From an uncultured Gammaproteobacteria bacterium (GTDB lineage: Bacteria; Patescibacteriota; Patescibacteriia; Magasanikbacterales; UBA922), in the NCBI GenBank assembly GCA_964516055.1, contig CAZEYK010000001.1, positions 1 to 51,030 of the forward strand: 51,030 nucleotides of DNA. Direction: 5' to 3'. The translations under genes were made by a program, and so were the position numbers. Below, piece by piece: positions 9,727 to 37,179 of the stretch. The first letter of the stretch is position 1; every line of letters begins with the position of its first letter. Below the pieces are notes generated by a model. That model was not told the origin of the DNA. It saw only the letters and a list, made by a program, of their open reading frames with translations, and did no database searches.

Positions 9727-11409
9727 ATGGCTGACAATACCAACAAGAACTATCGCTACATCGACAACGACCAGTTCGGAGGAAAGGTGCTCGAGCCTGG
9801 ATCCAAGATCCAGAACACGGACATCACCGTCCTCGACATCCTTGGCGCCGGCTCATTCGGCGTCGCCTACCTCTGCCAGAACAACGGGCAGGGACAGGTC
9901 GTCGTCAAGATGCTTCGGCAGAAGTTTCGTGGGGATTCTACCCATGTGAAACTGCTGATGCACGAGTGTGACATCGGCATCGGTTTAAAGAGCATCTCCC
10001 AGGTCGCCGGAGCATTTCAGTTCGGCGATCACGACGGCATGCGCTACATCGTGCTGCCGTACATCAAAGGTGAGACGCTCGAAAAGAAACTCCGGAATAA
10101 AAAAATGACGGAAACGGAGGATGTTGTGAGGTTCTTCTTGAGCTTCCTCGACGCAGTGCATCTCATGCACAGCGCCGAGTGCATCCACCGCGACCTGAAA
10201 CCGGAGAACATCATCGTCCGCGAGGAAGATGGTGCCGCGTGCATCATCGACCTCGGCACAGCAACCCATGTCGGGGAGAAAGAAGGTGACAACGTCTATA
10301 AGACCCAAGACGGGCAGGGCGGTGTACGCGGAACCCCCGTGTACATGTCTCAACTCCAATTCTCTCACAAGGCGGCATCCCCCAAAATGGACCTCTTCGC
10401 AATCAGCGTCATGCTGTTCGAGGCCATCACGGGAAAGATGCCCATCGAAGTACAAGAGGGAGATGCCTACACGGACGTCTACCGCAAGTACTTCCAACAA
10501 AAGCACTATGAGAGCCTGGATCAGCTCGTCAAGAATGACGCAAAGCTCTCCATGTTCTTCCAAGTGCTGAAAATGGGTTTCAAAAGCGGCGAGCTCGGCC
10601 CCGAAGAAGGGTCCTACTTCGCCAGCGCGGAGGAATTCCTCGACGCGCTGAAGAACATCTGCGAAGTCAACTTCCCCACCCTCTGGGCGGAGATCAGCCG
10701 CCAGGAGGCGAAGGAAAAAACAGGCATGATGAACATCGGCGACATCATCACCCAGATCGACGACAACAAAAGGACCAATCGTCCCAAGGTCGTCGACACG
10801 GCAGACACCATGCCACCCGCCGAGGTTCACCTTGCCGCGACGGCTGAGGCGATCGAAATCACCCTCCCCCCGGGTAAGGCTGGTTCTTTCGCCAAAATCA
10901 CCGTAGCGGTGGTAGGAGCACTCATGCTCCTCGCCGCCATCGCCCTTGGAGCCATCTGGCTCCTGAGCAACGACGAGGTCACCACCAACCCCAAAACAAT
11001 AAACACCGTGCAGCAAGAGGACAGCAGGGATGTCAACGAATATCCCGCTGAACTCGAACAGCCATCCTCTCCCGACGCAGAGTCCTCAGACGCGAGCACG
11101 CTCGCGGACAAGGCTCCGCAACAGGAGAAAGACATCGGTGTCAAAGATACAGGGGGGGAAGCAAAAGTCGAAGAAGACGCGTCCAAACAGGACGTCGTCG
11201 TCAAGACTGACACCTCGCCAAAGAAGCCACCAAAAGTCGTACCTCGTCGCCGTCGCACTCGCCCCCCAAAGGTCGAGGACAACAGCAACAACGGTGCAAA
11301 AACAGATACGCCACCCACCGAGAAAAAGAAGCCAAAAAGCTTCCTCACCAAACCGCCCAGCGGTACGGAGAAGAAGCCAAAAAGCTTTCTCAACGGAGGT
11401 GGCAAATGA
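9727..11409 (+). CDS. Hanks-type Ser/Thr protein kinase with one TM helix and a Lys/Pro-rich low-complexity tail
   Basis: AGGAG lies 7 nt upstream of the ATG. Kinase motifs: G-loop LGAGSFGVAY, VVKML lysine, catalytic loop HRDLKPENIIV, IIDLGTA (DFG-like), GTPVYMS. TM helix FAKITVAVVGALMLLAAIALGAIWLL. The tail carries a duplicated EKK(K)PKSFL. Third codon positions are strongly G/C. Confidence 0.9.
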   Translation: MADNTNKNYRYIDNDQFGGKVLEPGSKIQNTDITVLDILGAGSFGVAYLCQNNGQGQVVVKMLRQKFRGDSTHVKLLMHECDIGIGLKSISQVAGAFQFGDHDGMRYIVLPYIKGETLEKKLRNKKMTETEDVVRFFLSFLDAVHLMHSAECIHRDLKPENIIVREEDGAACIIDLGTATHVGEKEGDNVYKTQDGQGGVRGTPVYMSQLQFSHKAASPKMDLFAISVMLFEAITGKMPIEVQEGDAYTDVYRKYFQQKHYESLDQLVKNDAKLSMFFQVLKMGFKSGELGPEEGSYFASAEEFLDALKNICEVNFPTLWAEISRQEAKEKTGMMNIGDIITQIDDNKRTNRPKVVDTADTMPPAEVHLAATAEAIEITLPPGKAGSFAKITVAVVGALMLLAAIALGAIWLLSNDEVTTNPKTINTVQQEDSRDVNEYPAELEQPSSPDAESSDASTLADKAPQQEKDIGVKDTGGEAKVEEDASKQDVVVKTDTSPKKPPKVVPRRRRTRPPKVEDNSNNGAKTDTPPTEKKKPKSFLTKPPSGTEKKPKSFLNGGGK

Positions 11410-12422
11410 AGCAGGAGAACAAGAACATCATGAACAGAACCATGTCGTTCCTCGCTGCCACGCTCGTGGTGGTGGGGATGCTCCTGGGTTGGGGAAACCT
11501 GGCCCAGGCGCAGTCGGACGAAGTCCTCATCACCAAGGCCGAGCAGGCCATGGTAAAGAAGGACTACGTCCAAGCCATCGAGCTGTACACCCAGCTCTCC
11601 AACCGCAACAAGGACATGTCGGTGTACAAAGTCAACCTCGCGTTGGCCTACATGTCCATGAACGACGTCTGCTCGGGCCTCAAGTGGTTCGAGCAGGCGT
11701 CAAAAAACGAAGATCTGCCGCAAAGCGACGCGGCTGTCATCCAGACTGAATATCTGGAAGGATCATACGCCTGCCAAACCCTCACCGTGACCATCATCCC
11801 CCCTAAAAAGGGTGTGAAGCTCACGGTCGAAGGCAAGCTCGTCGCCACGACGGACAAAAACGGCAAAGCGACCATCGCCAAGCCGTTCACGTCCGTCGGT
11901 CAGATCACCCTTGTCGCCACCACCGACAACCGCACGGCGTCCACCACCGTGGACATCCCGTACGGTATCGGGGAAAAGTCCGTCACCATCACCCTGCCCA
12001 AGCCTACCAAAGGCAACGGCATCGTGTGGACCGACGACAAGAAGACTGATGAGGATGAGTTCGAAGTTGGCACCAAGCATCTCACCGTCATCGGCGTCGG
12101 GACCCTGTCCCTCGCGCTGGTGACAGGCGGCGTGTTCGCCAACATTTCGGCCGCGGGAAAATACGGAGAACTCGAGACCCTCGCGGGCAAACAAGCCCGT
12201 GGAGAGCTCAGGTCTCCCGCCGAAGCCGCGAAGCTTCAAGGGGAGCTCGACGACATGAACCAGTTGATGACAGCAATGTACATCAGCGGCGGCCTCCTGG
12301 CTGCCGCCGACGTCGCGCTGTTCTTCTACTGGGAAGCCGAGGAAACCAACAACAACACCCCCACCGTCACCATCACCCCCATGCGGGATGGTGGCACCGC
12401 GGTGTTCACCCTCCCCTTCTGA
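11406..12422 (+). CDS. Exported TPR-like / beta-sandwich (PEGA-like) protein with two C-terminal TM segments
   Basis: ATGA overlap with the kinase stop. Signal-like FLAATLVVVGMLLGWGNLAQA. TPR-like helix pair KAEQAMVKKDYVQAIELYTQL. Beta-rich segment TVTIIPPKKGVKLTVEGKLVATTDKNGKATI. TM segments LTVIGVGTLSLALVTGGVFANI and MYISGGLLAAADVALFFYW. Confidence 0.7.
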   Translation: MKQENKNIMNRTMSFLAATLVVVGMLLGWGNLAQAQSDEVLITKAEQAMVKKDYVQAIELYTQLSNRNKDMSVYKVNLALAYMSMNDVCSGLKWFEQASKNEDLPQSDAAVIQTEYLEGSYACQTLTVTIIPPKKGVKLTVEGKLVATTDKNGKATIAKPFTSVGQITLVATTDNRTASTTVDIPYGIGEKSVTITLPKPTKGNGIVWTDDKKTDEDEFEVGTKHLTVIGVGTLSLALVTGGVFANISAAGKYGELETLAGKQARGELRSPAEAAKLQGELDDMNQLMTAMYISGGLLAAADVALFFYWEAEETNNNTPTVTITPMRDGGTAVFTLPF

Positions 12423-12429
12423 AACAACA

Positions 12430-12448
12430 GGGGAGGCAACGCCTCCCC
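12430..12448 (+). other. GC-rich intercistronic hairpin
   Basis: GGGGAGGC (12430-12437), loop AAC, GCCTCCCC (12441-12448), with no following T-run. It lies between island genes 2 and 3. Confidence 0.45.
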
Positions 12449-12466
12449 CCAACAAGGAACACAATC

Positions 12467-14515
12467 ATGAAACAGTTCATCCATTTCCTGATGGGGATGG
12501 GGATGGCGATGCTATTCGTCGTCTCCGGCGGCTGTGAGAGCAGCCTCATCACCTGCGAAAAGAGCGCAGACTGCCCCGCGCACGCTTCGACGTGCTCCGA
12601 GGGCATCTGCATCACGCAGATCTCCATCGACAACGACACCGACGGCAACAACGACGGCAACAACGACAGCGATGTCGTCAACCCCGACGTCCCCGATACG
12701 GACAACGACACCTCCGACGCCGACGTCCCCCTGGACAACGGCTGCGGCGGTTCGGTGGAATTCCCAGAGGGTCAACGCCCAGGCGACCCCTGCGGCGAAA
12801 ACGACGAAGGGATGTGGGAGTGCGCCGGACAAAACGCCGTTCAGTGCAACGCCCCCAACCGCAACGCGTGTGGTGGCGAACAAGAGCTCAACGACGTACC
12901 CGGCACGATGTGCGGCGACGTGTGTCGCGATGGTTCACTCCGCTGCGACGAGGATGGTGAAAACCTCTTCTGCGCTGGCGAAAACGAGCCGTCAAATTGG
13001 TACCTCGACCTCGACGAAGACGAATACGGCGCGGGCGACCCCGCCGAGTTCTGTCCGAGTCAAGAAAGAGGTGCCTACACCGCCACTGTTGGCGGTGACT
13101 GCAACGACACGGACCCCGACGTCCACCCCGACGCCACCGAGATCTGCGACGGAATGGACAACAACTGCAACGGCGACTCTGACGAGCCGCTGAACGCCTG
13201 CGGGAGTTGTCAGGTCCTCCGCGGAGAGCCCGGCACCACTTGTGGTGAAGGACTCGATTGCGGATCAGGGACCTGGGAGTGCATGGGCGGCAACGTCCAG
13301 TGCACCCCCGGCGAGAACTCAGATCTCAACGCCTGCGGCGGATGCAGCACCCTCAGCCATGAGCCTGAAGAGGCTTGTGGTCAGTGCGGTGCCTACGCCT
13401 GCGACGGCGAAAACGCCACAATGTGCGTTGGCGCCGAGCCCAACAACGTTTGCGGCGGGTGCAACGCCCTGTCAAGCGACGTTGGCGCGCCCTGTGGCGC
13501 CTGCGGCGAGTATATCTGCAACGGTCGGGACGCTGTGCAATGCAGCGACCCCGGCCGCAATGCCTGTAATGGGTGTGGTGTTCTGGCTCATCAGCCCGCC
13601 ACGTCCTGTGACGAATGTGGGACCTACACCTGCAACGGCCCCAACACCGTCACCTGCAGCAACGACGTAGGCTTCAACGCCTGCGGCGTCTGCGACCGCA
13701 ACGGTGGTGTCTGCTGCGGCACAACCCTGTGCCCGCAGTCACCGCAAGGCTGGCCTGCGACCTGCAACGAAAAAGATCACTGCGAGTATGCTCCAGCCGA
13801 CGAGCTGGAGTTCTACAAAACGGTGATCTACGTTCCCCCCGGGAGCTTCCTCATGGGGGGACCCGAAGGAATTGAGAATGAAAAACCCGTACACGAGGTA
13901 ACATTCGTGCAAGGGTACTTCATTGCAAAGTTCGAGACCACCAGCGAGTGGTACGAACAATGCCCTCCATGCTTGGAGCAGCAGCGATCAATTGCCAACG
14001 GCAACGTTGGCAACTGGGGGCTCAACACCTCCAGCAACGGTCGCTCGCTCCACCCCGTCAACGGCGTCAACAAAAATGACGCCACCACCTTCTGTCTCTG
14101 GGCAGAAGGTCGACTCCCCACAGAAGCCGAATGGGAATTCGCCGCCACAGGAGAAAATCACAGGATCTACCCCTGGGGGGATGTTAATGGAACCTGCAAC
14201 CAGGCAATACTAACAATCTGTGGTTCCTTGGGGACCACAGAAGTGGGAACAGCAGCTGGGGGCGTCACCCCCAAAGGATGTCTCGACATGATCGGCAACG
14301 TAGCCGAACATGTAAGCGACGCCTACCACCCAACATATGAGGGTGCCCCAAATGACGGCACATCATGGGATGAGGGTGGAGAACCTGGAACCATAGTCAT
14401 CCGCGGCGGGGGGTATCACCAGGATACCCCCCGCATATCACACAGAGTAAGCTCGTTTAGTGACGAGCGAAACGCAATGACAGGATTCAGGTGTGTCTTC
14501 TTTGGCCTCCCCTAG
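12467..14515 (+). CDS. Lipoprotein with Asp/Asn-rich linker, ~6-7 Cys-rich repeats, a MopE-like metal-binding motif and a C-terminal FGE-sulfatase (SUMF1/PvdO/GldK-type) domain
   Basis: Lipobox-like MLFVVSGGC. Repeats of the form NACGGCxxLxxxPGxxCGxCGxYxCxGxxxVxC. MopE-like motif DCNDTDPDVHPDATEICDGMDNNCNGDSDE. C-terminal domain: YVPPGSFLMGG..EKPVHEVTF..LPTEAEWEFAA..IRGGGY..GFRCV (about 13820-14506). Confidence 0.85.
   Translation: MKQFIHFLMGMGMAMLFVVSGGCESSLITCEKSADCPAHASTCSEGICITQISIDNDTDGNNDGNNDSDVVNPDVPDTDNDTSDADVPLDNGCGGSVEFPEGQRPGDPCGENDEGMWECAGQNAVQCNAPNRNACGGEQELNDVPGTMCGDVCRDGSLRCDEDGENLFCAGENEPSNWYLDLDEDEYGAGDPAEFCPSQERGAYTATVGGDCNDTDPDVHPDATEICDGMDNNCNGDSDEPLNACGSCQVLRGEPGTTCGEGLDCGSGTWECMGGNVQCTPGENSDLNACGGCSTLSHEPEEACGQCGAYACDGENATMCVGAEPNNVCGGCNALSSDVGAPCGACGEYICNGRDAVQCSDPGRNACNGCGVLAHQPATSCDECGTYTCNGPNTVTCSNDVGFNACGVCDRNGGVCCGTTLCPQSPQGWPATCNEKDHCEYAPADELEFYKTVIYVPPGSFLMGGPEGIENEKPVHEVTFVQGYFIAKFETTSEWYEQCPPCLEQQRSIANGNVGNWGLNTSSNGRSLHPVNGVNKNDATTFCLWAEGRLPTEAEWEFAATGENHRIYPWGDVNGTCNQAILTICGSLGTTEVGTAAGGVTPKGCLDMIGNVAEHVSDAYHPTYEGAPNDGTSWDEGGEPGTIVIRGGGYHQDTPRISHRVSSFSDERNAMTGFRCVFFGLP
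12734..13726 (+). repeat. Coding tandem array of ~38-40-aa cysteine-rich repeats (Myxococcus-type disulfide repeat-like)
   Basis: Seven units, the last partial, each begin with N[AGV]C: NGCGGSVEF.., NACGGEQEL.., NACGSCQVL.., NACGGCSTL.., NVCGGCNAL.., NACNGCGVL.., NACGVCDRN... Confidence 0.75.
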
Positions 14516-14565: not shown

Positions 14566-14569
14566 CATC

Positions 14570-14602
14570 AAAAAAGCATTGAATAATATTCAATGCTTTT
14601 TT
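14570..14602. terminator. AT-rich bidirectional intrinsic terminator between convergent units
   Basis: A6 (14570-14575), palindrome GCATTGAATA-A-TATTCAATGC (14576-14596), T6 (14597-14602). It lies between the island stop (14515) and the minus-strand stop (14638). Confidence 0.75.
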
Positions 14603-14637
14603 GTTTATTACTAAATTGTAAAATACAAAAAAATAAT

Positions 14638-15348
14638 TTACTGTTCCAATAGATGTTTCATTCGTGCTTCAGCCACAATCCAATCATCCTTACTATCAAT
14701 ATCTTGCGAATACACCGTATCCATTTCATATCCATACCGTCTTTTCCCCCACAAAGAACCTTCCAATAAATTATTAACCCGAAACGCATAAATGGCAGAA
14801 TTCACATAATATGTTATTGGTAAATCCTGATTTCTCTTAAAATTGGTGCATTCTGATTTTACAACAGGCATAACAATTTCATCACCAATGTTTTCTAATT
14901 GTTTCAAATAACTCATCCTACCAGGAACTCGAGAAATACCAACCAAAGAATCAATATCATCCCGTTCCTCAATAATTTGTTTTACCTCTTGAATATGAAA
15001 AGATTGTCTGCCTGGACAAGAAGGCTCTAATAAAATAATCCAATCAGCATAATACTTTCTATTTTCCCTCATCCAATTAACAGCATGAATGACGACATCT
15101 AGTGACGTCGCCATATCAGTAGCCAACTCTGCTGGTCTAATAAAAGGAACATCCACACCATGAGCTTTACCAATACTTGCAATTTCTTCATCATCAGTAG
15201 ACAAAATAAAATGATCGAAAACATTACTTTGTTTTCCAACATCAATACTCCAAACAAGCAATGGCTTACCCAAAAATTCTTTAATATTCTTCCTAGGTAA
15301 ACGCTTTGATCCACCACGGGCAGTAATAAGGCCTAATATTTTTTTCAT
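14638..15348 (-). CDS. CMP-nonulosonic acid synthetase (acylneuraminate cytidylyltransferase family), copy 1
   Basis: MKKILGLITARGGSKRLPRKNIK..GKPLL.WSI motif. It is clearly paralogous to 39404-40135, sharing FDHFILSTDD, VPFxRPAELATD and YYxNSAIYAFRV. The track ORF's 34-aa N-terminal extension overlaps the upstream gene, so ATG 15348 is preferred. Confidence 0.8.
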   Translation of the reverse strand: MKKILGLITARGGSKRLPRKNIKEFLGKPLLVWSIDVGKQSNVFDHFILSTDDEEIASIGKAHGVDVPFIRPAELATDMATSLDVVIHAVNWMRENRKYYADWIILLEPSCPGRQSFHIQEVKQIIEERDDIDSLVGISRVPGRMSYLKQLENIGDEIVMPVVKSECTNFKRNQDLPITYYVNSAIYAFRVNNLLEGSLWGKRRYGYEMDTVYSQDIDSKDDWIVAEARMKHLLEQ

Positions 15349-15355: not shown

Positions 15356-17323
15356 CTATATATGCAAACCACACTCATTATTACCCGTATCATGAAATCG
15401 TCCCTTTCTTTCTTCGTTAGCAACATCACTTTTTTTTGTACAAGGTTCACAACCTAAAGAAGTATATCCTTCATTATATAATGGATGATATGATAACTTA
15501 TACGTTCGTAAATATTCCCATACATCATCTTTTGTCCAAAATGCAATTGGATTATACTTTACAATATTTTCTGATTTTTCAATAATAGGAGTATATTGTC
15601 GTTGAACACTTTCATCACGACGTAATCCGGTAATCCATGCATCATACTTATCTAAAATGGGAACAATGGCAGGTTTTTTCATGGCACAACACATATACTG
15701 TCCTTCATGAATAAACGAATTTGCAAACGTACTTTTTATTTCAGAAATATCATCTTCAGTAGGACGAACCCACAAAAGATTCATATGAATTTCTTGCTCT
15801 AATTCTTTTGCAAAACGAAGTGTCTCTGGAAATTCATATCCAGTATCAATACTAACAAACAAAGCATCAGACTTAATTTGCATAACTAAATCAGCAATAA
15901 CTCGAGAATCCTTACCAAATGAACAAGCAACAAACAAATTTGGATGAACCAAAAATGCATGTTCAATAATTATTTTTGAAAGTTCTACCTTTTCTTCAAG
16001 AGTTATGTTTTTTTTAGGAACATCCAATAAAAGAGGTTCTTCTTGAATGTCAGGCAACATTTTTTTCTCTGATGGAGTAATAACCCCAGCAGCAACAGTA
16101 TCTCCTGTAACTTCATCAATTAATATAAAACTTCCCAATTTTTTATTCTTCTTGTATGAATCAAAAACAAATGGTTCATGAGTAGTAAAACGCACCTTAC
16201 CTATCTGATTAAGTTCCACTTGAGAGGCTTCTTGATATTCCCCATTCAAAACATCAATAACAGAAAAAACAGTATTAATAAAACAAAAAGTCTCCTTTGT
16301 CGTTTGTTTGATAATATATCTATTTTTCTTTACCGCAGGTTGTTTATTAAACCAAAACACCACAGCATCAATATTGTTAGAAACAATAGGTTCATTACCA
16401 ACACGCACCACAATATCCCCTCGACTGACATCAATTTGGTCAACAAAACTCATAACAGCAGCCTGTCCATTAAACGCATAACTCACATCTTCTTCTGCTA
16501 CAGAAATATGTTCAATAAAAGATTCAACACCTGATGGTAAAACTTTTATATTATCTCCAACAAGAAATACTCCTCCAGCGACAGTCCCTGCATACCCTCG
16601 AAAATCTTGATCAGGACGAACAACATATTGCACAGGAAAACGAGCATCCACCATATTACGGGAAGAGATAACAGGAACATCATGAATATATTCAAGTACT
16701 GTCTGACCAAAATACCATAACAAATTATTGCCACGAGTAGCAACCATATCACCTTTTAAAGCAGAAACCGGAATAAACTGAATATTTTTTATACCAATAT
16801 TTCTCGTAAACAATTGAACATCATCCCTTATGTTTTCAAAAACACCTTGATCATATGACACCATATCCATTTTATTCACAACAACTGCGACATGGGGAAT
16901 ATTCAATAAAGAAAGGACAAAAAAATGACGTCTTGTTTGCACAGTCATTCCTTTTCTTGCGTCAATCACAATCAATGCAACTTGAGAATGAGAAGCACCT
17001 GTAACCATATTTCTTGTATATTCTTCATGACCAGGAACATCGGCAATAATAAACGTTCTTTGATTAGAAGAAAAATATCTATATGCTACATCAATAGTAA
17101 TTTTTTGTTCTCGCTCAGCTTCAAGACCATCTGTAAAAAGTGAATAATCAAGTTCATCCTCAATGTGTTCAGTATTTTCAACAGCTTGTATTTGATCTTC
17201 ATACACATTACCCGTATCATAAAGAAGCCTTCCTATTAAAGTTGATTTTCCATCATCTACACTTCCAGCAATAACAAGAGTAAGTAATTCCATGTTTCGA
17301 TTGTATTTACGTTTATTCTCCAT
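15356..17323 (-). CDS. cysN: Fusion: sulfate adenylyltransferase subunit 1 (CysN GTPase) + Fe-S type APS/PAPS reductase (CysH family)
   Basis: CysN part (aa 1-417): GSVDDGKSTLIGRLL, DVPGHEEY, NKMD. CysH part (aa ~441-655, nt 16003-15359): PP-loop-like ACSFGKDS, the Cys pair QYMCCAMKKP, GCEPCT, and the C-terminal ECGLH motif. Confidence 0.85.
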   Translation of the reverse strand: MENKRKYNRNMELLTLVIAGSVDDGKSTLIGRLLYDTGNVYEDQIQAVENTEHIEDELDYSLFTDGLEAEREQKITIDVAYRYFSSNQRTFIIADVPGHEEYTRNMVTGASHSQVALIVIDARKGMTVQTRRHFFVLSLLNIPHVAVVVNKMDMVSYDQGVFENIRDDVQLFTRNIGIKNIQFIPVSALKGDMVATRGNNLLWYFGQTVLEYIHDVPVISSRNMVDARFPVQYVVRPDQDFRGYAGTVAGGVFLVGDNIKVLPSGVESFIEHISVAEEDVSYAFNGQAAVMSFVDQIDVSRGDIVVRVGNEPIVSNNIDAVVFWFNKQPAVKKNRYIIKQTTKETFCFINTVFSVIDVLNGEYQEASQVELNQIGKVRFTTHEPFVFDSYKKNKKLGSFILIDEVTGDTVAAGVITPSEKKMLPDIQEEPLLLDVPKKNITLEEKVELSKIIIEHAFLVHPNLFVACSFGKDSRVIADLVMQIKSDALFVSIDTGYEFPETLRFAKELEQEIHMNLLWVRPTEDDISEIKSTFANSFIHEGQYMCCAMKKPAIVPILDKYDAWITGLRRDESVQRQYTPIIEKSENIVKYNPIAFWTKDDVWEYLRTYKLSYHPLYNEGYTSLGCEPCTKKSDVANEERKGRFHDTGNNECGLHI

Positions 17324-17326
17324 ACA

Positions 17327-18235
17327 CTAAAAATAGCCTTGTTTTTTTTTATGTTCCATTGAAGTGTCAGATGTTTTATCAATTGCCCTATTACTTCTTT
17401 CGGACTGTTTTGCTTCCAAAACTTCACAAAGGATTTCCTCAACTGTTTTTGCACATGACAATACGGCACCAGTAGAAGGTGAACACCCTAAAGTTCGATA
17501 ACGAGCTTCTGCTTCTATAACTTCTTCCCCTTCTCGAGCAATCACATAATTGTCCAACGCATAAAAACTATTATTGCGCTTCACCAATTTTCTTTTCTCG
17601 GCAAAATAGAGTGAGACAACTTCAATCTTTTCTTGAAGAATATACGCCCAGATATCGGCTTCAGTCCAATTAGACAATGGAAAAACGCGCATACTCTGTC
17701 CATTCTGTAATTGAGTATTGTATAAATTCCATAACTCAGGTCTTTGTAATTTTGGATTCCAACCACTGTGTTCATTACGAACAGAAAAAATACGTTCTTT
17801 TGCACGAGATTTTTCTTCTTCACGTCTAGCGCCACCAATTGCGGCATCAAAACGATACCTTTCAAGAGCGTCAAGTAAAGGCTTCGTTTTTTTATGATAA
17901 ATATAATTATCAGTATGTGCATCATTCGGACCAAAAGACAAAGCCTCCAAAGAATCATTTTTTTCAACAATCAGTTGCACACCAATTTTATCTATATAAT
18001 AATCACGAAATTCAATCATCTCTCTAAATTTAAACCCTGTGTCAACGTGCAAAAGAGGAAAAGGAATCTTTCCTGGGAAAAAAGCCTTTTGTGCTAAACG
18101 TAACAAAACTGAAGAATCCTTACCAATAGAATAAAGAAGGACAGGACGACGAAATGTCGCAGCGACCTCACGAAAAATATAAATACTTTCTGCTTCAAGC
18201 TGCTTAAGCGATGATAATTGATATTTTTCCCCCAT
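17327..18235 (-). CDS. cysD: Sulfate adenylyltransferase subunit 2
   Basis: LKQLEAESIYIFREVAA..PVLLYSIGKDSSVLLRLA PP-loop. Length is 302 aa. It ends 3 nt before the cysN fusion start. Confidence 0.85.
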   Translation of the reverse strand: MGEKYQLSSLKQLEAESIYIFREVAATFRRPVLLYSIGKDSSVLLRLAQKAFFPGKIPFPLLHVDTGFKFREMIEFRDYYIDKIGVQLIVEKNDSLEALSFGPNDAHTDNYIYHKKTKPLLDALERYRFDAAIGGARREEEKSRAKERIFSVRNEHSGWNPKLQRPELWNLYNTQLQNGQSMRVFPLSNWTEADIWAYILQEKIEVVSLYFAEKRKLVKRNNSFYALDNYVIAREGEEVIEAEARYRTLGCSPSTGAVLSCAKTVEEILCEVLEAKQSERSNRAIDKTSDTSMEHKKKQGYF

Positions 18236-18275
18236 AAAAAAACTTTTTTAGATACTAATTTTTAAAAAATTCTTA

Positions 18276-19301
18276 CTAATATAAATCTTCAATAAGAACC
18301 AAAGTATCCTCTTCAATAAATTTTTTAACCTTTTTTCCTAATACTTTATGAACATACCCCGTAGCAAGGCCCTTACCAGGTCGCTTAAATACGATATCAC
18401 TCCTTTCAAGAACTTTACCAACGGGGATATCCTTAGCAGCCACAATACTTTGACTTGCCCATCCCCTTGCAGCAATTATATGATCAACACGATTGGAACT
18501 TGCAGGAAGAATAGATGCTTCAACATCACGAATTTGTTTAACCATTTGCTTTAAATCTTCAGGATCACATGAAACAGGACAATCAAATGATCTTTTATCT
18601 GTTTTATCAAAAGAAAGATGTTTTTCAATAAGTTTTGCACCAAGCGCAACAGCCGCAATAGGAATATGTAAACCAATAGTATGATCGGAATATCCAATAG
18701 GACAATCTAATTGATTCTTTAACTGAGTAATAGTTCCCAAACTATTTATATCAACAGGAGTAGGATAAATAGTATTGCAATGCAACGCGACAATATCAAT
18801 GAGTCCCTCAGATTCCATAATAGAAAGAGAATTATGAATTTCTTCAACCGATTTATGGAGACCAAAAGAAACAATAACAGGCTTACCCCGAGAAGCAACA
18901 TTACGCAAAAAATCATTATTAATACTTTCTCCAGAACCAATCTTAAAAAATGGAATATCTAAATCTTTATCAATAAATTCTAAATCAACTTCCGTATGAG
19001 AAGTAACAAAAAAATCGATATTACGAATTTCACAATATTCCTTCAACATTCGTAAATCATTATATGAAAGTTCTTTATACTTTAATCGACTATACCAATA
19101 AGGATCTACCTTTTTTGAAACAAGTGCTTCCGTCGTTTGTGCTTGAAACTTAATAGCATCAGCACCAGCAGCCATAGCAGCATCTACCTGCCTCTTTGCA
19201 AGTGCAATGTCACCCCAATTTGTTAAACCTCCTTCTGCAACGATGTAGACAGGATATTCTTCACCGATGAAACCGTTACCAATACGTACTTTATTATTCA
19301 T
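18276..19301 (-). CDS. NeuB-family nonulosonic acid synthase (divergent), copy 1
   Basis: YIVAEGGLTNWGDIALAKRQVDAAMAAGADAIKFQ, compared with canonical IAEIGxNHNG. Metal-ligand contexts ALHCNTIYPTP and GYSDHTIG. C-terminal SAF-like IVAAKDIPVGKVLERSDIVFKRPGKG. Confidence 0.75.
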   Translation of the reverse strand: MNNKVRIGNGFIGEEYPVYIVAEGGLTNWGDIALAKRQVDAAMAAGADAIKFQAQTTEALVSKKVDPYWYSRLKYKELSYNDLRMLKEYCEIRNIDFFVTSHTEVDLEFIDKDLDIPFFKIGSGESINNDFLRNVASRGKPVIVSFGLHKSVEEIHNSLSIMESEGLIDIVALHCNTIYPTPVDINSLGTITQLKNQLDCPIGYSDHTIGLHIPIAAVALGAKLIEKHLSFDKTDKRSFDCPVSCDPEDLKQMVKQIRDVEASILPASSNRVDHIIAARGWASQSIVAAKDIPVGKVLERSDIVFKRPGKGLATGYVHKVLGKKVKKFIEEDTLVLIEDLY

Positions 19302-19334
19302 AAAATAATAATTTATTTAAGAATTAAAAAATAC

Positions 19335-20492
19335 CTATACTGATTGTTCCCACTTCACTTTTGGCATAATAGTATCTTTATCAATATTATCCTTATATTC
19401 AATAATCTTTTTCAACATACTGTCCACCAAAACGTCAGACAATTTTTGTGGTTTCAAGCCAAGATCAATGAATTTCGTATGAACAGGATTAAAATAATGT
19501 GTTTCCATCTCCTTTCGAGGATTTTCAATATTCATTATTTTCACATCAAGACCAAATTTCTTCCCTGATTCTTGAACAAGCATTGCAAGCTGATTAATTG
19601 AAAATGTTTCAGTAAACTGATTATAAATTTTAAATTCACCAGGCTCAGAAGGGTTAAGGACAGCAAGTTCAACACACTGCAATGTATCAAGAATATTCAA
19701 AAATGCACGTTTTTGTTCCCCTTTTCCATAAGGAGTAATAGGAAGACCTGCAATAGCTTGCACACAAAAACGATTTAATGCCGTACCAAAAATTTCATCA
19801 TAATGAAAACTGGTACATAATTTTTCATGAAATAGTGTTTCTTCCGTTTCAATACCATAAACAACACCTTGGTTTAAATCAGTTGCCCTAAGATTCCAGG
19901 TATTAACAGCAAAATAAATATTATTACTATCATGTACTTTTGAAAGATGATAAAAAGAACCTGGTCTTTTTGGAAATAACACACGATCTTTTCTTCCTTT
20001 ATGTTCTACATCAAGATATCCTTCTTCAATATCAATATTTGGTGTTCCATATTCTCCCATGGTACCAAGTTTAACCAAATGTGCATGTGGACAATGTTTT
20101 TTTATAGCAAATAAAACATTTAAATTTCCAATAACATTATTTGTTTGAGTAATAATAGCCTGTTCATTTCCACTCATGGAAAATGGCGCGGAAGGTTGTT
20201 CTCCATAATGGACAATGGCATCCGGTCTAAAATCCTCAAAAACTTTATGAACAAAACGAGTATTCACCAAATCGCCAACATACATTTTTATATCTTTCCC
20301 TGTCACGTCTTTCCACACACGAATACGCTCATGAAGCGTAGCAACTTCAGGTAATGGTTTAATTCCCATTTCCATTTCCCACTTTCTTTTATTGAAGTTA
20401 TCTAACACAGCAACCTCATACCCTTTTCGAGAAAAGTACATTGCAGTAGGCCAACCAAGGTACCCATCTCCTCCCAAAATCAAAATCTTCAT
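19335..20492 (-). CDS. sqdB: UDP-sulfoquinovose synthase
   Basis: Long near-identical blocks match the SQD1/SqdB sequence as I recall it. They are ILGGDGYLGW, LVKLGTMGEYGTPNIDIEEGY, SFYHLSKVHDS (Tyr/His/Lys catalytic context), ATDLNQGVVYG and FGTALNRFCVQA. Confidence 0.88.
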   Translation of the reverse strand: MKILILGGDGYLGWPTAMYFSRKGYEVAVLDNFNKRKWEMEMGIKPLPEVATLHERIRVWKDVTGKDIKMYVGDLVNTRFVHKVFEDFRPDAIVHYGEQPSAPFSMSGNEQAIITQTNNVIGNLNVLFAIKKHCPHAHLVKLGTMGEYGTPNIDIEEGYLDVEHKGRKDRVLFPKRPGSFYHLSKVHDSNNIYFAVNTWNLRATDLNQGVVYGIETEETLFHEKLCTSFHYDEIFGTALNRFCVQAIAGLPITPYGKGEQKRAFLNILDTLQCVELAVLNPSEPGEFKIYNQFTETFSINQLAMLVQESGKKFGLDVKIMNIENPRKEMETHYFNPVHTKFIDLGLKPQKLSDVLVDSMLKKIIEYKDNIDKDTIMPKVKWEQSV

Positions 20493-21433
20493 ACAATATT
20501 TGTTAATTTAGAATATTCTTCTTTAAAATAAATAAGTGTTTTATTAATACCATCTTCAAGTGTCACTTCCGGTTTCCAATTTAATTCTTTTTGTGTAACG
20601 CTGTTATCAAGGCAACTTCTCAAAATTTCACCAAGCAATGCCTCGCCATTATGTACGTGTACTGAAACATCAAGTTTTTGAGCAATAACCTGAAATAATT
20701 TATTTACACTACACTCCTTTCCAGTACTAACATTGTAAGTATTCAATGTATTTCCATTTTGTTCACCAGCAAGAACATTCACTCTTGCAATATCTTCCAC
20801 ATAAATAAAATCCCGAGTTTGCTCTCCACTACCATTGATCACAGGGGTAACACCTTCAAGTAAATTTTTAATAAATACAGCAACTACACCACCTTCTCCC
20901 TTCCTATCTTGCCTCGGACCATAAACATTGCTATATCTCAAGATGGTAACCGGCATGCCATAAACAGTATTATAATAATATAAATACTGTTCACCCGCCA
21001 ACTTATCAATACCATATGGAGAAATTGGTTTTGTCGAATGATCAAGTGTCGTTGGAAGCTGATCAGTATTCCCATATAATGCTCCTCCTGTAGAAGAAAA
21101 GACAAAACGCGAAATATTATATTTTCGTGCATATTCCAACAAATTCACCATTCCATGAACATTATTATAGATATCATTAAGTGGATCATTCACAGATTTT
21201 CTTACATTTGTAGCAGCAGCGAGATGACAAACAACATCAATCCTTTCATGAAAAAAAATATCCGATAAATCATCCGCAATATTCCGTCTATATATTGGAA
21301 CTCCTTTGGGAATATTATAATCTTTCCCAGTGCTAAAATCATCCAATACGATAGGATAATGACCGCTAACAATAAATTGTTCAACAACATGTGAGCCAAT
21401 AAAACCAGCACCACCAGTAACTAAAATACGCAT
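20489..21433 (-). CDS. NAD-dependent sugar-nucleotide 4-epimerase (GalE-like)
   Basis: MRILVTGGAGFIGSHV and the YxxxK motif in SPYGIDKLAGEQY. ATGA overlap with the sqdB start. Confidence 0.75.
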   Translation of the reverse strand: MRILVTGGAGFIGSHVVEQFIVSGHYPIVLDDFSTGKDYNIPKGVPIYRRNIADDLSDIFFHERIDVVCHLAAATNVRKSVNDPLNDIYNNVHGMVNLLEYARKYNISRFVFSSTGGALYGNTDQLPTTLDHSTKPISPYGIDKLAGEQYLYYYNTVYGMPVTILRYSNVYGPRQDRKGEGGVVAVFIKNLLEGVTPVINGSGEQTRDFIYVEDIARVNVLAGEQNGNTLNTYNVSTGKECSVNKLFQVIAQKLDVSVHVHNGEALLGEILRSCLDNSVTQKELNWKPEVTLEDGINKTLIYFKEEYSKLTNIV

Positions 21434-21523: not shown

Positions 21524-22660
21524 TTAATACGTAATTTTTTTCATCAATAGGTCATCATCAACATCAATATTCCGAATAATTTCATAAATTTTTTTCCCTG
21601 CTGTACCATCACCAAATATATAATTATTAACAATTTTATTACGAAATTCATAGCTTGTTGCTTTATCAATAGCCTCAAGAATATCTTCTTTAACAGGATT
21701 ACAAGAAATAACGTTCACATCCCGGACCCTTCCTTCTTGACGTTTTCCAACAGTAACACTCGGCAAACCAAAATAAGGAGTTTCAATAAGACCTGAACTT
21801 GAATTACCAATAAAAAATGACGCGCCATCCATCAACCCCCAAAAATCTAAAGCATCTATATTTTTATGTACAGAAAAATACGGAACAGTACGAAACTCAT
21901 CAAGTGCACGTAAAGTTCCTTGATAACCTTGGTCACTACAGGGGTAAATCACGAGCGTCCGTATCCCATAATCCCTAAGAGCACCATATACAGATAAAGC
22001 TTCATCATATGACGCACATTCTTTCAAGGTCATAGGATGTTGAATACAAATGGCATAAGGCTCTTCTTCACCAATAGCATACATACGACGAACATCCCGA
22101 TTATTAGTAAATCTTCCTTGCATAACAAAATCAATATATGTAGCACCAACAGTATGTACCCGATGAGATTCTTCACCGAGTTTCAAAATACGATCAGCAC
22201 TATCCGCAGATGAAGGAAAATGTAGATGAGAAAGTTTAGTAATAGCATGAATTCTATTTCCATCCCTATTTCCAGCGACATCACCACCAAGAATATGTGC
22301 AACTGGAATATTTAACTCCATAGCCGCAATAGTAGCTGAAAGAACCTCTCCCCTATCACCCAAAGTAATCAATATATCTGGACGTGCTTCACTAAGCACA
22401 TCCACCATACGAGAAACAAATAGACCCAACGCCCGTCCACGCTCAACAGCCGAATCATCTTTCTGACCAAATACAACCTTATATGAAATAGGAAAAAATC
22501 GTTCAACTTCTTTTGCAGTATAGCCAAATATATTTGACAGATGCATATCTGTCACAATTAATTGCAATTCCATCAAAGGATCATTCTGGATCATCTCCAT
22601 TAACCCAATCATGGCCCCAAACCCGCCTCGTTTACCACTCAATACAGCGACCTTTTTCAT
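21524..22660 (-). CDS. Hydrolysing UDP-N-acetylglucosamine 2-epimerase (NeuC family), copy 1
   Basis: MKKVAVLSGKRGGFG, LGDRGEVLSATIAAMELNIPVAHILGGDV, HAITKLSHLHFPS. Confidence 0.8.
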   Translation of the reverse strand: MKKVAVLSGKRGGFGAMIGLMEMIQNDPLMELQLIVTDMHLSNIFGYTAKEVERFFPISYKVVFGQKDDSAVERGRALGLFVSRMVDVLSEARPDILITLGDRGEVLSATIAAMELNIPVAHILGGDVAGNRDGNRIHAITKLSHLHFPSSADSADRILKLGEESHRVHTVGATYIDFVMQGRFTNNRDVRRMYAIGEEEPYAICIQHPMTLKECASYDEALSVYGALRDYGIRTLVIYPCSDQGYQGTLRALDEFRTVPYFSVHKNIDALDFWGLMDGASFFIGNSSSGLIETPYFGLPSVTVGKRQEGRVRDVNVISCNPVKEDILEAIDKATSYEFRNKIVNNYIFGDGTAGKKIYEIIRNIDVDDDLLMKKITY

Positions 22661-22672: not shown

Positions 22673-23668
22673 TTATAATACAGCCTTGATACTTTGTGTA
22701 TCCAAAAAATTTTGAGAACTATATGAAAAATCGCAGATAACATTATTAAATCCTTCATACTCTGTATTGACTGATTGAACATTATCAATCAAAATCTCTG
22801 GAAGTAATACATATAATTTTTTATTCTCAATTAACGTTTGAGACAACTCACTTTCCGTAAATAAATCCTCATGCATTTTTTCTCCCGGAAATAAACCTAT
22901 CTTAGTAATAGTAACTCCACTATCAGGAAAAAATTTATCAATAAACGCCCTGGCTAATTCACCAAGTTCAATAGATTTCATTTTAAGAACAAAAATCTCA
23001 CCACCTTTTGCCAATACCGCAGAAGTCAATACAAGATCAATAGCTTCATTAGTATGCATAAAAAATCTTGTCATCTCTGAATTGGTAATAGTAATATTAT
23101 TATTCTCTTCAACTTGTTCCTTCCAAATAGGCAAAACAGAACCACGAGACCACATAACATTACCAAACCGTACACAAGAAAATTTAGTTTGAGCATTTCC
23201 CGAATAATAATTTGCATTCACAACTAACTTTTCCATCATCAACTTAGAAACTCCCATAATACTCGTTGGATTGACTGATTTGTCAGATGATATTGCTACT
23301 AATTTTTCAACATTATGTTCAATTGCGACGTCAATAACATTTTGAGTTCCCATGATATTTGTTTTTACTACTTCAAACGGATTATATTCACAAATAGCCA
23401 CGTGCTTGAGAGCCGCAGCATGAAATACAATATCTACTCCATCAAAAGCTCTTCGCAATCGATCTTTATCCCGAATATCACCAAGAAAAAGACGTAAATT
23501 TTCTGGATTACCTAACTTTTTTTGTAAATAAAATTGCTTATGTTCATCACGAGAATATACTCGAACTTGTTTTGGATTAAATGCCAAAATTTTTTTGACA
23601 AGTTCAGATCCAATCCAACCAGTGCCACCGGTGACCAAAACTATTTTATTCTCAAATTTATGTTTCAT
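22673..23668 (-). CDS. Short soluble CapD/PglF-type nucleotide-GlcNAc 4,6-dehydratase
   Basis: VLVTGGTGWIGSELV, YSRDEHKQ, and PTSIMGVSKLMMEK. Met sits at the usual SDR Tyr position, as in the PglF/WbpM/CapD family NVMGATK. Confidence 0.75.
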   Translation of the reverse strand: MKHKFENKIVLVTGGTGWIGSELVKKILAFNPKQVRVYSRDEHKQFYLQKKLGNPENLRLFLGDIRDKDRLRRAFDGVDIVFHAAALKHVAICEYNPFEVVKTNIMGTQNVIDVAIEHNVEKLVAISSDKSVNPTSIMGVSKLMMEKLVVNANYYSGNAQTKFSCVRFGNVMWSRGSVLPIWKEQVEENNNITITNSEMTRFFMHTNEAIDLVLTSAVLAKGGEIFVLKMKSIELGELARAFIDKFFPDSGVTITKIGLFPGEKMHEDLFTESELSQTLIENKKLYVLLPEILIDNVQSVNTEYEGFNNVICDFSYSSQNFLDTQSIKAVL

Positions 23669-24785
23669 ATGCTCTTAAAGTAGAAATAAGATATTCAATA
23701 ATAGCTTTAATATCCTCTTTTGTCAACCCTATATAGAACGGTAAAGCAAGGGAAGAAGCACTTACAGATTCCGATACAGGAAACATTCCCTCTGTATTAA
23801 TTGAAAAATTTTTTTGATAATAATCAGAAAGATGAATTGACGGCAAATAAGGTTTTGTACTAACTCCTTGTTTGGCAAGATCAAGTATCAAATGGTCCCT
23901 TTTATCAACATATTTTTGCAATCTTACTACATATACAAACCATGTATTAGTTGTATAATCAGCAGTTTGAGGGGAAGTAACCATATCAGAGTATGAAGCC
24001 AAAGCTTCTTCATACCAAAGTGCAATTTTTTGCCGTTCAGAAATAAAATAATCAAGTTTAGCAAGTTGAGTAATTCCAAGAGAAGCACTCATTTCATCCA
24101 TTCTATAATTATATCCAAGATGTACGTGATCCAACCACTGCAGGTTATCAGATCTTCCTTGGTTACGTAGACTTGCACACAATTTATAAATCCTCTCATC
24201 ATTTGTCACAATCATACCACCCTCTCCAGTAGTCATCTGCTTATTAGCATAAAAAGCAAAAACTCCAGACTCCCCAATTCCACCAACTTTTGTTCCCTTA
24301 TACTCAGCGCAAAGAGATTCACAAGCATCTTCTATCACATGGAGATTGTATTTCTTAGCCAACTCCATAATTGGATCCATATCAGCAGATTGCCCAAAAA
24401 TATGTGGGATAACAATCGCCGTTGTCTTGTCAGTAATAACTTTTTCAATCAATGCTGGATCCAAGTTATAAGTCATTTCATCAACATCAACAAATATAGG
24501 CGTAGCACCAACATAAACAATACAATTAGACGAAGCAATAAAAGAAAATGGAGAAGTAATAACCTCATCACCAGGTTTAACCCCTGCAGCAATTAAAGTT
24601 AAGTGAAGACCACAAGTACCACTACTAACAGCACAGGCATATTTCGTCCCAACTTTTTCTGCAAACTGACGTTCAAACTCTTGATACTTTGGCCCCAAGC
24701 TTAAACATCCAGAACGAAGTACTTCAAGTACACCGTCCTCATCAACTTTATCTAGATATGGTTTTGCTAATGGATATTTATTCAT
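23658..24785 (-). CDS. DegT/DnrJ/EryC1-family PLP sugar aminotransferase (PglE/LegC-like)
   Basis: LGPKYQEFERQFAEKVGTKYACAVSSGTCGLHL. PLP-lysine context FYANKQMTTGEGGMIVT. Confidence 0.85.
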   Translation of the reverse strand: MNKYPLAKPYLDKVDEDGVLEVLRSGCLSLGPKYQEFERQFAEKVGTKYACAVSSGTCGLHLTLIAAGVKPGDEVITSPFSFIASSNCIVYVGATPIFVDVDEMTYNLDPALIEKVITDKTTAIVIPHIFGQSADMDPIMELAKKYNLHVIEDACESLCAEYKGTKVGGIGESGVFAFYANKQMTTGEGGMIVTNDERIYKLCASLRNQGRSDNLQWLDHVHLGYNYRMDEMSASLGITQLAKLDYFISERQKIALWYEEALASYSDMVTSPQTADYTTNTWFVYVVRLQKYVDKRDHLILDLAKQGVSTKPYLPSIHLSDYYQKNFSINTEGMFPVSESVSASSLALPFYIGLTKEDIKAIIEYLISTLRAYET

Positions 24786-26363: not shown

Positions 26364-26367
26364 ATAT

Positions 26368-27426: not shown

Positions 27427-27439
27427 ACAACAATAAATA

Positions 27440-28435: not shown

Positions 28436-28449
28436 ATAATTAATATCAA

Positions 28450-29169: not shown

Positions 29170-29170
29170 A

Positions 29171-29965: not shown

Positions 29966-30008
29966 AATGCTTCGAATAATTTCATTTACAAAAATTTAAT
30001 ACAACAAA

Positions 30009-31325: not shown

Positions 31326-31340
31326 ATTATACTAATTATA

Positions 31341-32105: not shown

Positions 32106-32109
32106 ATAT

Positions 32110-33645: not shown

Positions 33646-33646
33646 A

Positions 33647-35434: not shown

Positions 35435-35437
35435 AAA

Positions 35438-36817: not shown

Positions 36818-36825
36818 AAATAAAA

Positions 36826-37179
36826 TTATTTTCTAATATCAGGATTTCTCACCACTACATTAATAACAACATTATGCATATCAATAATAGGGACAATATT
36901 GATAGATGAATCCTTCGCAAATAACTCAGTAGCTTCTTCTTCCCCCTTAGCAACCGTTGGATTAAGATTAACTACATCACCAATAGGCGATGTAAGTGTC
37001 CTTCCAGAAACAAGAGCACGTCGAATATCCCCATCAGAAACCACACCTTCTAAATGATACTGATCATTAACAACCACCACCGTTCCCCGCTGATTATCAG
37101 TCATAGCAACCATCGCTTCTAACATAGTGATATTATTTTGCACTACGTAGTTATGTAATGCGAGTGTATCATGAGACAT
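36826..37179 (-). CDS. Stand-alone CBS-domain pair protein
   Basis: 117 aa. Sequence MLEAMVAMTDNQRGTVVVVNDQYHLEGVVSDGDIRRAL and a second CBS-like half. Confidence 0.7.
   Translation of the reverse strand: MSHDTLALHNYVVQNNITMLEAMVAMTDNQRGTVVVVNDQYHLEGVVSDGDIRRALVSGRTLTSPIGDVVNLNPTVAKGEEEATELFAKDSSINIVPIIDMHNVVINVVVRNPDIRK

Follow-up and report, generated by a model that had tools for sequence, protein, structure and literature searches.

The stretch analysed here, positions 1 to 51,030 of contig CAZEYK010000001.1 (hereafter the window), is the visible 51 kb portion of the genome of a member of Candidatus Magasanikbacteria, a groundwater lineage of the candidate phyla radiation (CPR) with a tiny genome. 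It holds a block of genes in which an SqdB-type sulfo-sugar nucleotide synthase stands together with sulfate-activation genes and genes of nonulosonic acid (NulO) synthesis, and this block is described below on the basis of sequence and gene neighbourhood throughout. A protein record 100% identical to the window SqdB (P0121) comes from Candidatus Magasanikbacteria bacterium CG10_big_fil_rev_8_21_14, and a protein identical to the window NeuB (18276-19301) is also recorded from it.

Between ~14.6 kb and 51 kb every gene is on the minus strand, and the GC content is ~0.33. The target region comprises nine genes, in transcription order PseC-like, PseB-like, NeuC, GalE-like, SqdB, NeuB, CysD, CysN::APS reductase (APS, adenosine 5'-phosphosulfate) and CMP-nonulosonate synthetase. 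The intergenic gaps along this series are -11, 12, 90, -4, 33, 40, 3 and 7 nt, and the region is therefore regarded as one operon-like block. SqdB, CysD and the fusion are intact open reading frames (ORFs). The GalE-like gene ends in a 4-nt overlap with the start of SqdB, and the start of the CMP-nonulosonate synthetase was re-set to the ATG 7 nt past the stop codon of the fusion. The NeuC and NeuB of this block and their counterparts beside SqdB elsewhere are called module NeuC and module NeuB.

23658-24785, minus strand: PseC-like aminotransferase; neighbour of the SqdB module, may belong to it or to the adjacent NulO set B
22673-23668, minus strand: PseB-like 4,6-dehydratase; likewise a neighbour that may belong to the SqdB module or to NulO set B
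21524-22660, minus strand: module NeuC, hydrolysing UDP-sugar 2-epimerase of the SqdB-module clade; TIGR03568 327.1 > 235.9
20489-21433, minus strand: GalE-like short-chain dehydrogenase/reductase (SDR); Pfam Epimerase, score under the GalE cut-off
19335-20492, minus strand: SqdB-type sulfo-sugar nucleotide synthase (extended SDR), 385 aa; SQD1 match, 'EQPSAP' (Pro101) clade
18276-19301, minus strand: module NeuB, nonulosonic acid synthase of the SqdB-associated subfamily; Pfam NeuB+SAF
17327-18235, minus strand: CysD, sulfate adenylyltransferase small subunit, 302 aa; TIGR02039 426.9 > 396.6
15356-17323, minus strand: CysN::APS reductase fusion, single 655-aa ORF; TIGR02034 + PF01507
16064-17323, minus strand: CysN domain (GTPase subunit), fusion residues 1-420; TIGR02034; GTP_EFTU, GTP-eEF1A_C
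15356-15991, stop codon included, minus strand: APS reductase domain (CysH, [4Fe-4S]), fusion residues ~445-655; PF01507, NF002537
14638-15348, minus strand: CMP-nonulosonate synthetase (PseF/NeuA-like); PF02348; TIGR03584 149 bits

An earlier reading of the letters without database searches (the sequence-only reading) had described a cassette of CysD, CysN::APS reductase and SqdB. These three genes are present; the NeuB gene inside the same interval was overlooked. Its place is between SqdB and CysD, and the sulfate genes do not follow SqdB directly, contrary to what had been stated. As for the two outermost genes, PseC and PseB come before the SqdB module in locus L001, and the PseB-like gene in L041 accompanies a second NulO set of the GFO type. 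A GalE-like partner also adjoins SqdB in L005, L042, L044 and L055.

For comparison, an SqdB genome scan covered 36 loci, one from CPR (L005, Sungbacteria) and 35 from outside CPR, and nine further CPR-type contexts were read.

SqdB and its probable sulfite supply

The window SqdB matched the SQD1 structures 1qrr/1i24 with E=7e-154 and was aligned to Arabidopsis SQD1 at 55.5% identity across 382 residues with zero gaps. It keeps the motifs GGDGYLG, GTMGEYG and SFYHLSK, and the SQD1 residues T145, Y182, H183 and K186 are all conserved, as are H96, M146, S180 and Q209, so that the SqdB call of the sequence-only reading is borne out. The score against NCBIfam NF041015 was 463.2 (cut-off 575); because SQD1 itself reaches just 484.7, this cut-off is uninformative for UDP-sulfoquinovose synthases. 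With SQD1 (Arabidopsis), SqdB (S. meliloti, cyanobacteria) and Agl3 (Sulfolobus acidocaldarius) the window protein shares fold, length, GxxGxxG, T145/Y182/K186, H183 and the SQD1-specific insertion.

SQD1, S. meliloti SqdB and Agl3 carry Arg in the EQRSAP motif, whereas the window SqdB and its surrounding clade carry Pro (EQPSAP in the window; SQD1 Arg101). Pro occupies this position in the window and in 119/120 of its nearest homologues, and in nearly all related bacterial loci that were aligned, one locus having Ser. Arg101 is present in SQD1 and in homologues from S. meliloti, Rhodococcus, Microbulbifer, Pseudonocardia and Agrobacterium. The R101A mutant of Agl3 is inactive, the primer sequence identifying the EQRSAP motif (PMC4388408). 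Pro101 was considered as a marker for NulO-linked SqdBs and rejected, as it also occurs in Acidobacterial and Nitrospirota loci without NulO genes. A general link of the Pro101 clade to the UDP-GlcNAc (UDP-N-acetylglucosamine) 2-epimerase family outside CPR was not upheld either, being found only in L012, L016, L024, L035, L036 and the Haladaptatus locus L062.

The last of these is a further link between the clade and the 2-epimerase family: on the Haladaptatus salinisoli plasmid (L062, 3001-6783) a haloarchaeal Pro101 SqdB is followed by a GT4 glycosyltransferase and then a non-hydrolysing UDP-GlcNAc 2-epimerase (WecB). In Nitrospirota, Desulfobacterales, Brocadiia and Peptococcaceae, a PseB-like gene (Polysacc_synt_2) lies directly upstream of SqdB, which in many cases is followed by a GalE-like gene (L015, L017-L020, L022-L031, L033, L035, L038; mostly without NulO genes), and the SqdBs of this group carry N208M, V211P and S185T relative to SQD1. 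The non-CPR locus L035 (2090-5463) additionally holds a divergent second SqdB paralogue at 39% identity, in which the catalytic Thr and Lys fail to align; it directly precedes module NeuB and NeuC, and a PseB-like gene paired with a normal SqdB follows 5 kb on.

The partners of SqdB also differ from those of the known sulfolipid systems. SQD1 and SqdB work with the lipid glycosyltransferases SqdX, SqdD or SQD2, and in S. meliloti a glycosyltransferase gene comes next to sqdB, whereas the window SqdB is partnered by NeuC, NeuB and a CMP-transferase. No glycosyltransferase, whether of the SqdX/SQD2 or SqdD/SqdC types or any other, was found beside SqdB in the window or the CPR loci, and the generic GT4 of the window lies 27 kb from SqdB.

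CysD passed the TIGR02039 cut-off and is 64-73% identical to CysD of L001, L002, L039 and L041. The CysN domain scored 481.9 against TIGR02034 (cut-off 336.1) over residues 14-415, and its GTPase motifs (P-loop GSVDDGKST, DVPGH, NKMD) are visible in the ORF. The fusion C-terminus matched PF01507 at residues 463-630 (152 bits) and NF002537 at 190.2 (cut-off 154); the TIGR02055 APS_reductase sub-model gave 150.6 (cut-off 235.3). The domain carries the CC...CxxC and ECGLH motifs, aligned to its best solved relatives, M. tuberculosis CysH (7lhr) and P. aeruginosa APS reductase (2goy), and should therefore reduce APS directly, an APS kinase being unneeded. The CysD, CysN and APS-reductase calls of the sequence-only reading thus stand, and sulfite use by the window SqdB is implied by the adjacent APS reductase.

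The fusion is rare. Its architecture was found over the full length in P0002 and P0003 (50-52% identity), in a 663-aa protein of L054 and in P0241, and the same fusion occurs in L001 and L002; P0241 and junction-spanning fragments make up a handful of clusters among 1.84 billion cluster representatives. Because it is found again in independent assemblies, the fusion is taken to be real. In P0246, CysN is fused to a reductase-like domain without the cluster cysteines. The closest CysN sequences are CysN-CysC fusions of CPR (Patescibacteria), at 50-56% identity, and the CysN-CysC model NF004035 aligned to residues 6-420 only (541.6, cut-off 715). CysN-CysC proteins (NodQ-type) share with the window fusion a CysN GTPase that works with CysD and a C-terminal domain that consumes APS. 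Their C-terminus, however, is an APS kinase (PF01583) that makes 3'-phosphoadenosine 5'-phosphosulfate (PAPS), whereas the window fusion carries an iron-sulfur APS reductase that yields sulfite. A shared rationale is plausible by analogy, in which APS use on the same polypeptide would pull the unfavourable sulfurylase reaction forward.

Genes for cysH, cysD+cysN or the fusion lie beside SqdB or module NeuB in nine independent loci, all of them apparently CPR (window, L001, L002, L005, L039, L041, L044, L054, L058). CysD with the CysN::CysH fusion is found in the window, L001, L002 and L054, separate cysH/D/N in L039 and L041, and a lone cysH in L005, L044 and L058; L040, L055 and L056 have no sulfite genes in the module. 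No cys genes were found next to SqdB in the non-CPR loci (0/35). Among window ORFs of at least 150 aa there is no APS kinase, sulfite reductase or SqdX/SqdD-type gene, in agreement with the sequence-only reading, and neither sulfite reductase nor cysteine synthase was detected in the window or any related locus. CPR commonly lack general sulfur assimilation, and a private sulfite supply would be needed in such lineages for that reason. The proposal that CysD and CysN::CysH are a dedicated sulfite supply for SqdB, already made from the letters alone, is well supported by the linkage in these 9 loci against 0/35 outside CPR.

On the 1.03-Mb CPR contig L039 (12219-17731), SqdB and module NeuB are directly followed by a sulfotransferase, an APS kinase, a 946-aa protein with pyruvate-kinase/PUA/ATP-sulfurylase/APS-kinase domains and a CysQ-like phosphatase. 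These genes form a PAPS-dependent route of O-sulfation, distinct from the sulfite route next to it, and indicate that APS-to-sulfite and APS-to-PAPS are kept apart there.

Module conservation and the NeuB and NeuC clades

SqdB lies among NulO genes in all CPR loci examined, with NeuC, CMP-transferase and NeuB genes around it in the window, L001, L039, L040, L041, L042, L044, L054, L055 and L056. A methyltransferase variant of the module (TagF-like, NeuC, methyltransferase, CMP-transferase, (CysH, CysD, CysN), SqdB, NeuB) is found in L039, L040, L041 and L054, and also in L001, where an unrelated 434-aa ORF stands at the TagF-like position. A GalE variant, in which the order varies (NeuC, (CysH), GalE-like, SqdB, CMP-transferase, NeuB), is found in the window, L042, L044 and L055, no NeuC being found in L042. 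L005 is a looser GalE case, with CysH, SqdB, a GalE-like gene, two CMP-transferases and a divergent NeuB-like ORF and without NeuC, and L056 holds NeuC, SqdB, CMP-transferase and a TagF-like gene. No conserved UDP-sulfoquinovose glycosyltransferase accompanies the module; only TagF-like transferases recur with it, a family whose donors release CMP.

For a reciprocal test, loci were fetched by similarity to module NeuB alone, each having 5 kb or more of context (L042, L044, L057, L058, L059, L066). An SqdB homologue was present in 6/6 (47-65% identity), as was a CMP-transferase (6/6); SqdB had Pro101 wherever EQxSAP was recognisable, and NeuC had SGKRGG wherever NeuC was present (none in L042). 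The loci of ordinary NeuBs from the same scan (L046-48, L051, L052) had SqdB in 0/5 (Fisher p=0.002 against 6/6). Four of the fetched loci show a third arrangement of NeuC, SqdB, CMP-transferase, 2-hydroxyacid dehydrogenase and NeuB. The recurrent D-2-hydroxyacid dehydrogenase family gene (L057, L058, L059, L066) is placed directly upstream of NeuB or past the CMP-transferase.

In simple neighbour-joining trees of small samples, the NeuBs linked to SqdB fall into two clades, neither of which includes the ordinary NeuBs that occur in the same loci or the N. meningitidis enzyme (NmNeuB). Clade I holds the window, L001, L002, L039, L042, L044, L055, L043 and L045, with the non-CPR L035 as sister, and clade II holds L040, L041 and L054, with L016 (non-CPR) as sister. 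In such trees the module NeuCs form one clade, including L016 and L035, apart from ordinary NeuC in the same genomes. Module NeuB has the PF03102 (NeuB TIM barrel) and PF08666 (SAF) domains and scores below the NeuB and PseI equivalog cut-offs (TIGR03569 268.8 < 399.65; TIGR03586 202.3 < 340.25), while NeuB_B of the same window passes with 433.6.

The window NeuB keeps E25, K53, Q55, T110, K129, S132, S154, Y186, S213, H215, E234, H236, D247 and R314, and all SqdB-linked NeuBs retain the catalytic, phosphoenolpyruvate (PEP) and metal residues together with R314, which in NmNeuB positions the N-acetyl group (PMC6795526). They differ in the loop that corresponds to NmNeuB residues 68-78, which is shorter and carries a conserved W-x-x-R, in F112->His (T-P-F -> T-x-H) and in F288->Trp; the CPR clades additionally alter N29/H30, M157 and G245, and E282 is lost. 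The window pocket accordingly reads T29/N30, H112, W288 and a W-x-x-R loop, against N29/H30, F112 and F288 in ordinary enzymes, and N74, F112 and F288 are among the thirteen residues that line the NmNeuB ligand site (PMC6795526). By eye, W-(F/Y)-x-R and T-x-H were present in all 120 nearest homologues of the window NeuB, two variants excepted, and module NeuB is therefore considered a sizeable subfamily.

Module NeuC has the N-terminal motif SGKRGG and the residues K10, G13 (ordinary Glu/Asp), D38, R74 (ordinary hydrophobic/Thr), C241 (ordinary invariant Asn) and Y246. In both enzymes the changes bring in Arg, His and Lys at the cost of acidic residues. This is what a substrate with one more anionic group would call for, and the enzymes look adapted to such a substrate.

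The Neu5Ac (N-acetylneuraminic acid), legionaminic and pseudaminic acid pathways (NeuC/LegG, NeuB/LegI/PseI, NeuA/LegF/PseF) use the same three families with the same operon logic. Their modifier is a 4,6-dehydratase with an aminotransferase, whereas that of the present set is SqdB, and module NeuB and NeuC differ from Neu5Ac-type enzymes by the clade-specific basic substitutions.

A PEP-aldose condensation on an aldose with a terminal anion, as proposed for module NeuB, is the reaction of animal Neu5Ac-9-P, Bacteroides Kdn-9-P and KDO8P synthases. In KDO8P synthase, the loop following the K-x-N/Q motif provides a phosphate-binding Arg; the conserved Arg of module NeuB lies in the loop after K53-x-Q55, equivalent to that phosphate-binding loop. 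Unlike in the phosphosugar synthases, the anion here would be a sulfonate bound through carbon and retained in the product, and no phosphatase is encoded. NCBI names module NeuB and its relatives (P0390, P0401, P0433, P0450, P0491) 'N-acylneuraminate-9-phosphate synthase', a name given to enzymes whose sugar substrate bears an anionic group at its last carbon. A close relationship to animal Neu5Ac-9-P synthase was considered against an unverified human NANS sequence; the similarity was not elevated over that of ordinary NeuBs and the His was not shared, and the comparison was given no weight.

Together with the SqdB set, the window region 25245-40135 brings the number of complete NeuC/NeuB/CMP-transferase sets to three: set A at 37182-40135, and set B at 25245-32105, which also includes a GFO oxidoreductase, a methyltransferase, a CN-hydrolase and a class III aminotransferase. 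The window also holds two TagF-like genes, one KpsS-like gene (Capsule_synth) and an ABC exporter, giving one CMP-type transferase candidate per NulO set. Assignment of one TagF-like gene to the module was ambiguous and was dropped, the gene at 35438 being 40-42% identical to the module copies of L040, L041 and L054, and that at 40116 being 42-46% identical to L039 and L054a.

Proposed pathway and alternative explanations

Sulfate, ATP and GTP would be converted to APS by CysD and the CysN domain, and APS would be reduced to sulfite by the fused APS reductase domain with a thiol reductant and no PAPS, pulling the sulfurylase step forward. SqdB would act on a UDP-hexose by C4 oxidation, C5-C6 dehydration, sulfite addition at C6 and C4 re-reduction. 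We lean towards module NeuC then taking the SqdB product, with UDP loss and 2-epimerisation, and module NeuB condensing it with PEP to a 9-deoxy-9-sulfo nonulosonic acid. This would be Neu5Ac-like from UDP-GlcNAc and Kdn-like from UDP-Glc, its stereochemistry may be altered by the GalE-like SDR, and it would be activated by the CMP-transferase and transferred onto a surface polymer. The chances are judged even that many CPR and some other phyla make such a C-sulfonated nonulosonic acid (9-deoxy-9-sulfo-Neu5Ac or its Kdn analogue), with an SqdB-derived sulfonate and dedicated NeuC and NeuB; this would include a private sulfate-to-sulfite module with the fusion in genome-reduced lineages, and Arg/His/Lys pockets holding the sulfonate.

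The sulfonated nonulosonic acid is favoured because the co-occurrence of SqdB, module NeuC and module NeuB is reciprocal and extends over the gene-order variants and outside CPR, because the latter two differ from ordinary paralogues of the same genomes by gained basic and lost acidic residues, and because the transferase conserved with the module is TagF-like and not a UDP-sugar glycosyltransferase. In L040 and L054 the SqdB set and a second complete NulO set lie side by side, where SqdB and the methyltransferase are the sole enzymes able to differentiate the product of the first set, which supports the same reading. The sequence-only reading had instead seen sulfoquinovose as a free-standing, Agl3-like building block. 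As stated, this is not supported, given the embedding of SqdB in a conserved NeuC/NeuB/CMP-transferase module, the special clades of these NeuC and NeuB enzymes and their extra basic pocket residues, and the lack of a conserved UDP-sulfoquinovose glycosyltransferase beside the module; the embedding and the clades point to the sulfo-sugar as a nonulosonic acid precursor.

Retention of R314 suggests that the 2-acetamido group is kept, in which case the SqdB substrate would be UDP-GlcNAc. This is the weakest step, because CPR SqdBs have no fixed difference from the Acidobacterial SqdBs that adjoin GT4 and Bac_transf genes and lack NulO genes; candidate residues for a switch to UDP-GlcNAc were sought between the two groups and none was fixed, with weak differences at 78, 172 and 173 only. 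The chemistry is otherwise plausible, since NeuC chemistry leaves C6 untouched, animal and Bacteroides synthases take 6-phospho sugars, and C9 changes are tolerated by CMP-sialate synthetases.

Several points weigh against the sulfonated nonulosonic acid. As the window SqdB, too, has no fixed residue difference from the Acidobacterial SqdBs unlinked to NulO genes, its product may be plain UDP-sulfoquinovose. To our knowledge, NeuC-type enzymes act only on 2-acetamido sugars. The equivalence of the module NeuB Arg to NmNeuB N74 is aligner-dependent, HMMER placing a gap there. A module-specific CMP-transferase was looked for in the window and not found: a module clade exists, but the window copy (14638-15348) falls outside it and clusters with the set-A paralogue. 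No NeuB was found within 10 kb in L056, and part of the synteny conservation among CPR could be due to shared ancestry. The literature searched reports no natural C-sulfonated nonulosonic acid; nothing was found in it on sulfoquinovose together with nonulosonic (sialic, legionaminic, pseudaminic) acids, on sulfoquinovosamine or on a 9-sulfo NulO, and nothing relevant on NulO in CPR. The sulfosugars named in a 2025 paper are only sulfoquinovose, sulfofucose and sulforhamnose (PMC12421959).

A separate surface-glycan residue is the main alternative, a lesser though real possibility: SqdB would make UDP-sulfoquinovose, or UDP-6-sulfofucose after 4-epimerisation by the GalE-like enzyme, a glycosyltransferase would transfer it, and the NulO genes would make an ordinary or otherwise modified nonulosonic acid, interleaved because both serve one polymer. 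This explains the SQD1-like sequence best, with its high gapless similarity and fully kept catalytic residues, and is in keeping with the likeness to the GT4- and Bac_transf-adjacent Acidobacterial SqdB, the overlap of the GalE-like gene with the SqdB start and the GT4 and GT2 genes of the window at 47127-49399. Sulfoquinovose in Sulfolobus and 6-C-sulfofucose in Thermoplasma are C6-sulfonated hexoses of archaeal N-glycans, thus of a surface glycoconjugate and not of a thylakoid lipid (PMC4388408; PMC12421959), and the biosynthesis of sulfofucose is not known (PMC12421959). Those glycans hold the hexose itself, however, and neither a link to NulO genes nor a dedicated cysDNH module is reported for them. 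A separate residue would also leave unexplained that the NeuB and NeuC beside SqdB form clades of their own whose pockets have gained basic residues, that module NeuB predicts SqdB in 6/6 loci and that the module lacks a conserved UDP-sugar glycosyltransferase, and the first NulO set of L040 and L054 would be a duplicate of the second.

Binding of another anion by module NeuB (NeuB_C) with no input from SqdB is improbable. The enzyme would then be a NulO-9-phosphate synthase acting on ManNAc-6-P or Man-6-P, in line with its NCBI name, or would take a 6-carboxy sugar from UDP-sugar dehydrogenases, two UGDH-family genes being nearby in both the window and L054; the pocket Arg and His would suit any anion. 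Such substrates are made less likely by the fact that no sugar kinase, HAD phosphatase or dehydrogenase is conserved with module NeuB: its conserved partner is SqdB, not UGDH, and module NeuC, which acts ahead of any kinase, has basic substitutions too. Least probable is that cysD and cysN-cysH serve ordinary assimilatory sulfate reduction for cysteine and are chance neighbours of SqdB. The enzymes are of standard assimilatory types, but the linkage recurs in independent, divergent loci with varied gene orders and in fused and unfused forms, which makes such housekeeping unlikely; the lack of sulfite reductase and cysteine synthase in the window and related loci and the separate PAPS route of L039 also stand against it.

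The wider window and significance

Between the CMP-transferase and two UGDH genes, the window holds a high-GC island (9727-14515, plus strand; 0.53-0.66 against 0.33-0.40 around it), with three ORFs on the opposite strand from the module: a Ser/Thr protein kinase, a 338-aa protein of unknown type and a 682-aa Cys-rich FGE-sulfatase/MopE-repeat protein. A weak inverted repeat of 29 nt borders the island, a perfect hairpin of 17 nt occurs at 14569-14603, and L054 has no island at the equivalent place. Either the island is foreign and came from a high-GC bacterium, or the assembly is chimeric here. A further cluster (41723-47103) encodes an NTP-transferase and a 929-aa protein in which NTP-transferase, dehydroquinate-synthase-like and APH kinase domains are fused, together with an alcohol dehydrogenase and a CDP-alcohol phosphatidyltransferase. 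It looks like a pathway in which a cyclitol or polyol phosphate, activated with CDP, is added as a decoration.

Sialic-acid-like sugars and sulfosugars are each well studied, and a natural sugar that joins both by a C-S bond is not known. The enzymes described here belong to known families; the product, if confirmed, would be a new sugar class. Even without a novel sugar, the CysN::APS-reductase fusion would be a rare example of APS channelling and would account for sulfate-activation genes being kept by organisms without apparent cysteine biosynthesis. The W-x-x-R and T-x-H motifs of module NeuB and SGKRGG of module NeuC can serve as markers for metagenome mining. If the proposed pathway is true, these NeuB and NeuC subfamilies would have a new specificity, useful in the chemo-enzymatic synthesis of 9-modified sialic acids, and an additional sink and source would exist within the organosulfonate cycle. 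The surface of CPR cells, believed to serve in attachment to hosts, is chemically almost unexplored; the sugar would provide these ultrasmall episymbiotic bacteria with a doubly anionic, hydrolysis-resistant surface residue.

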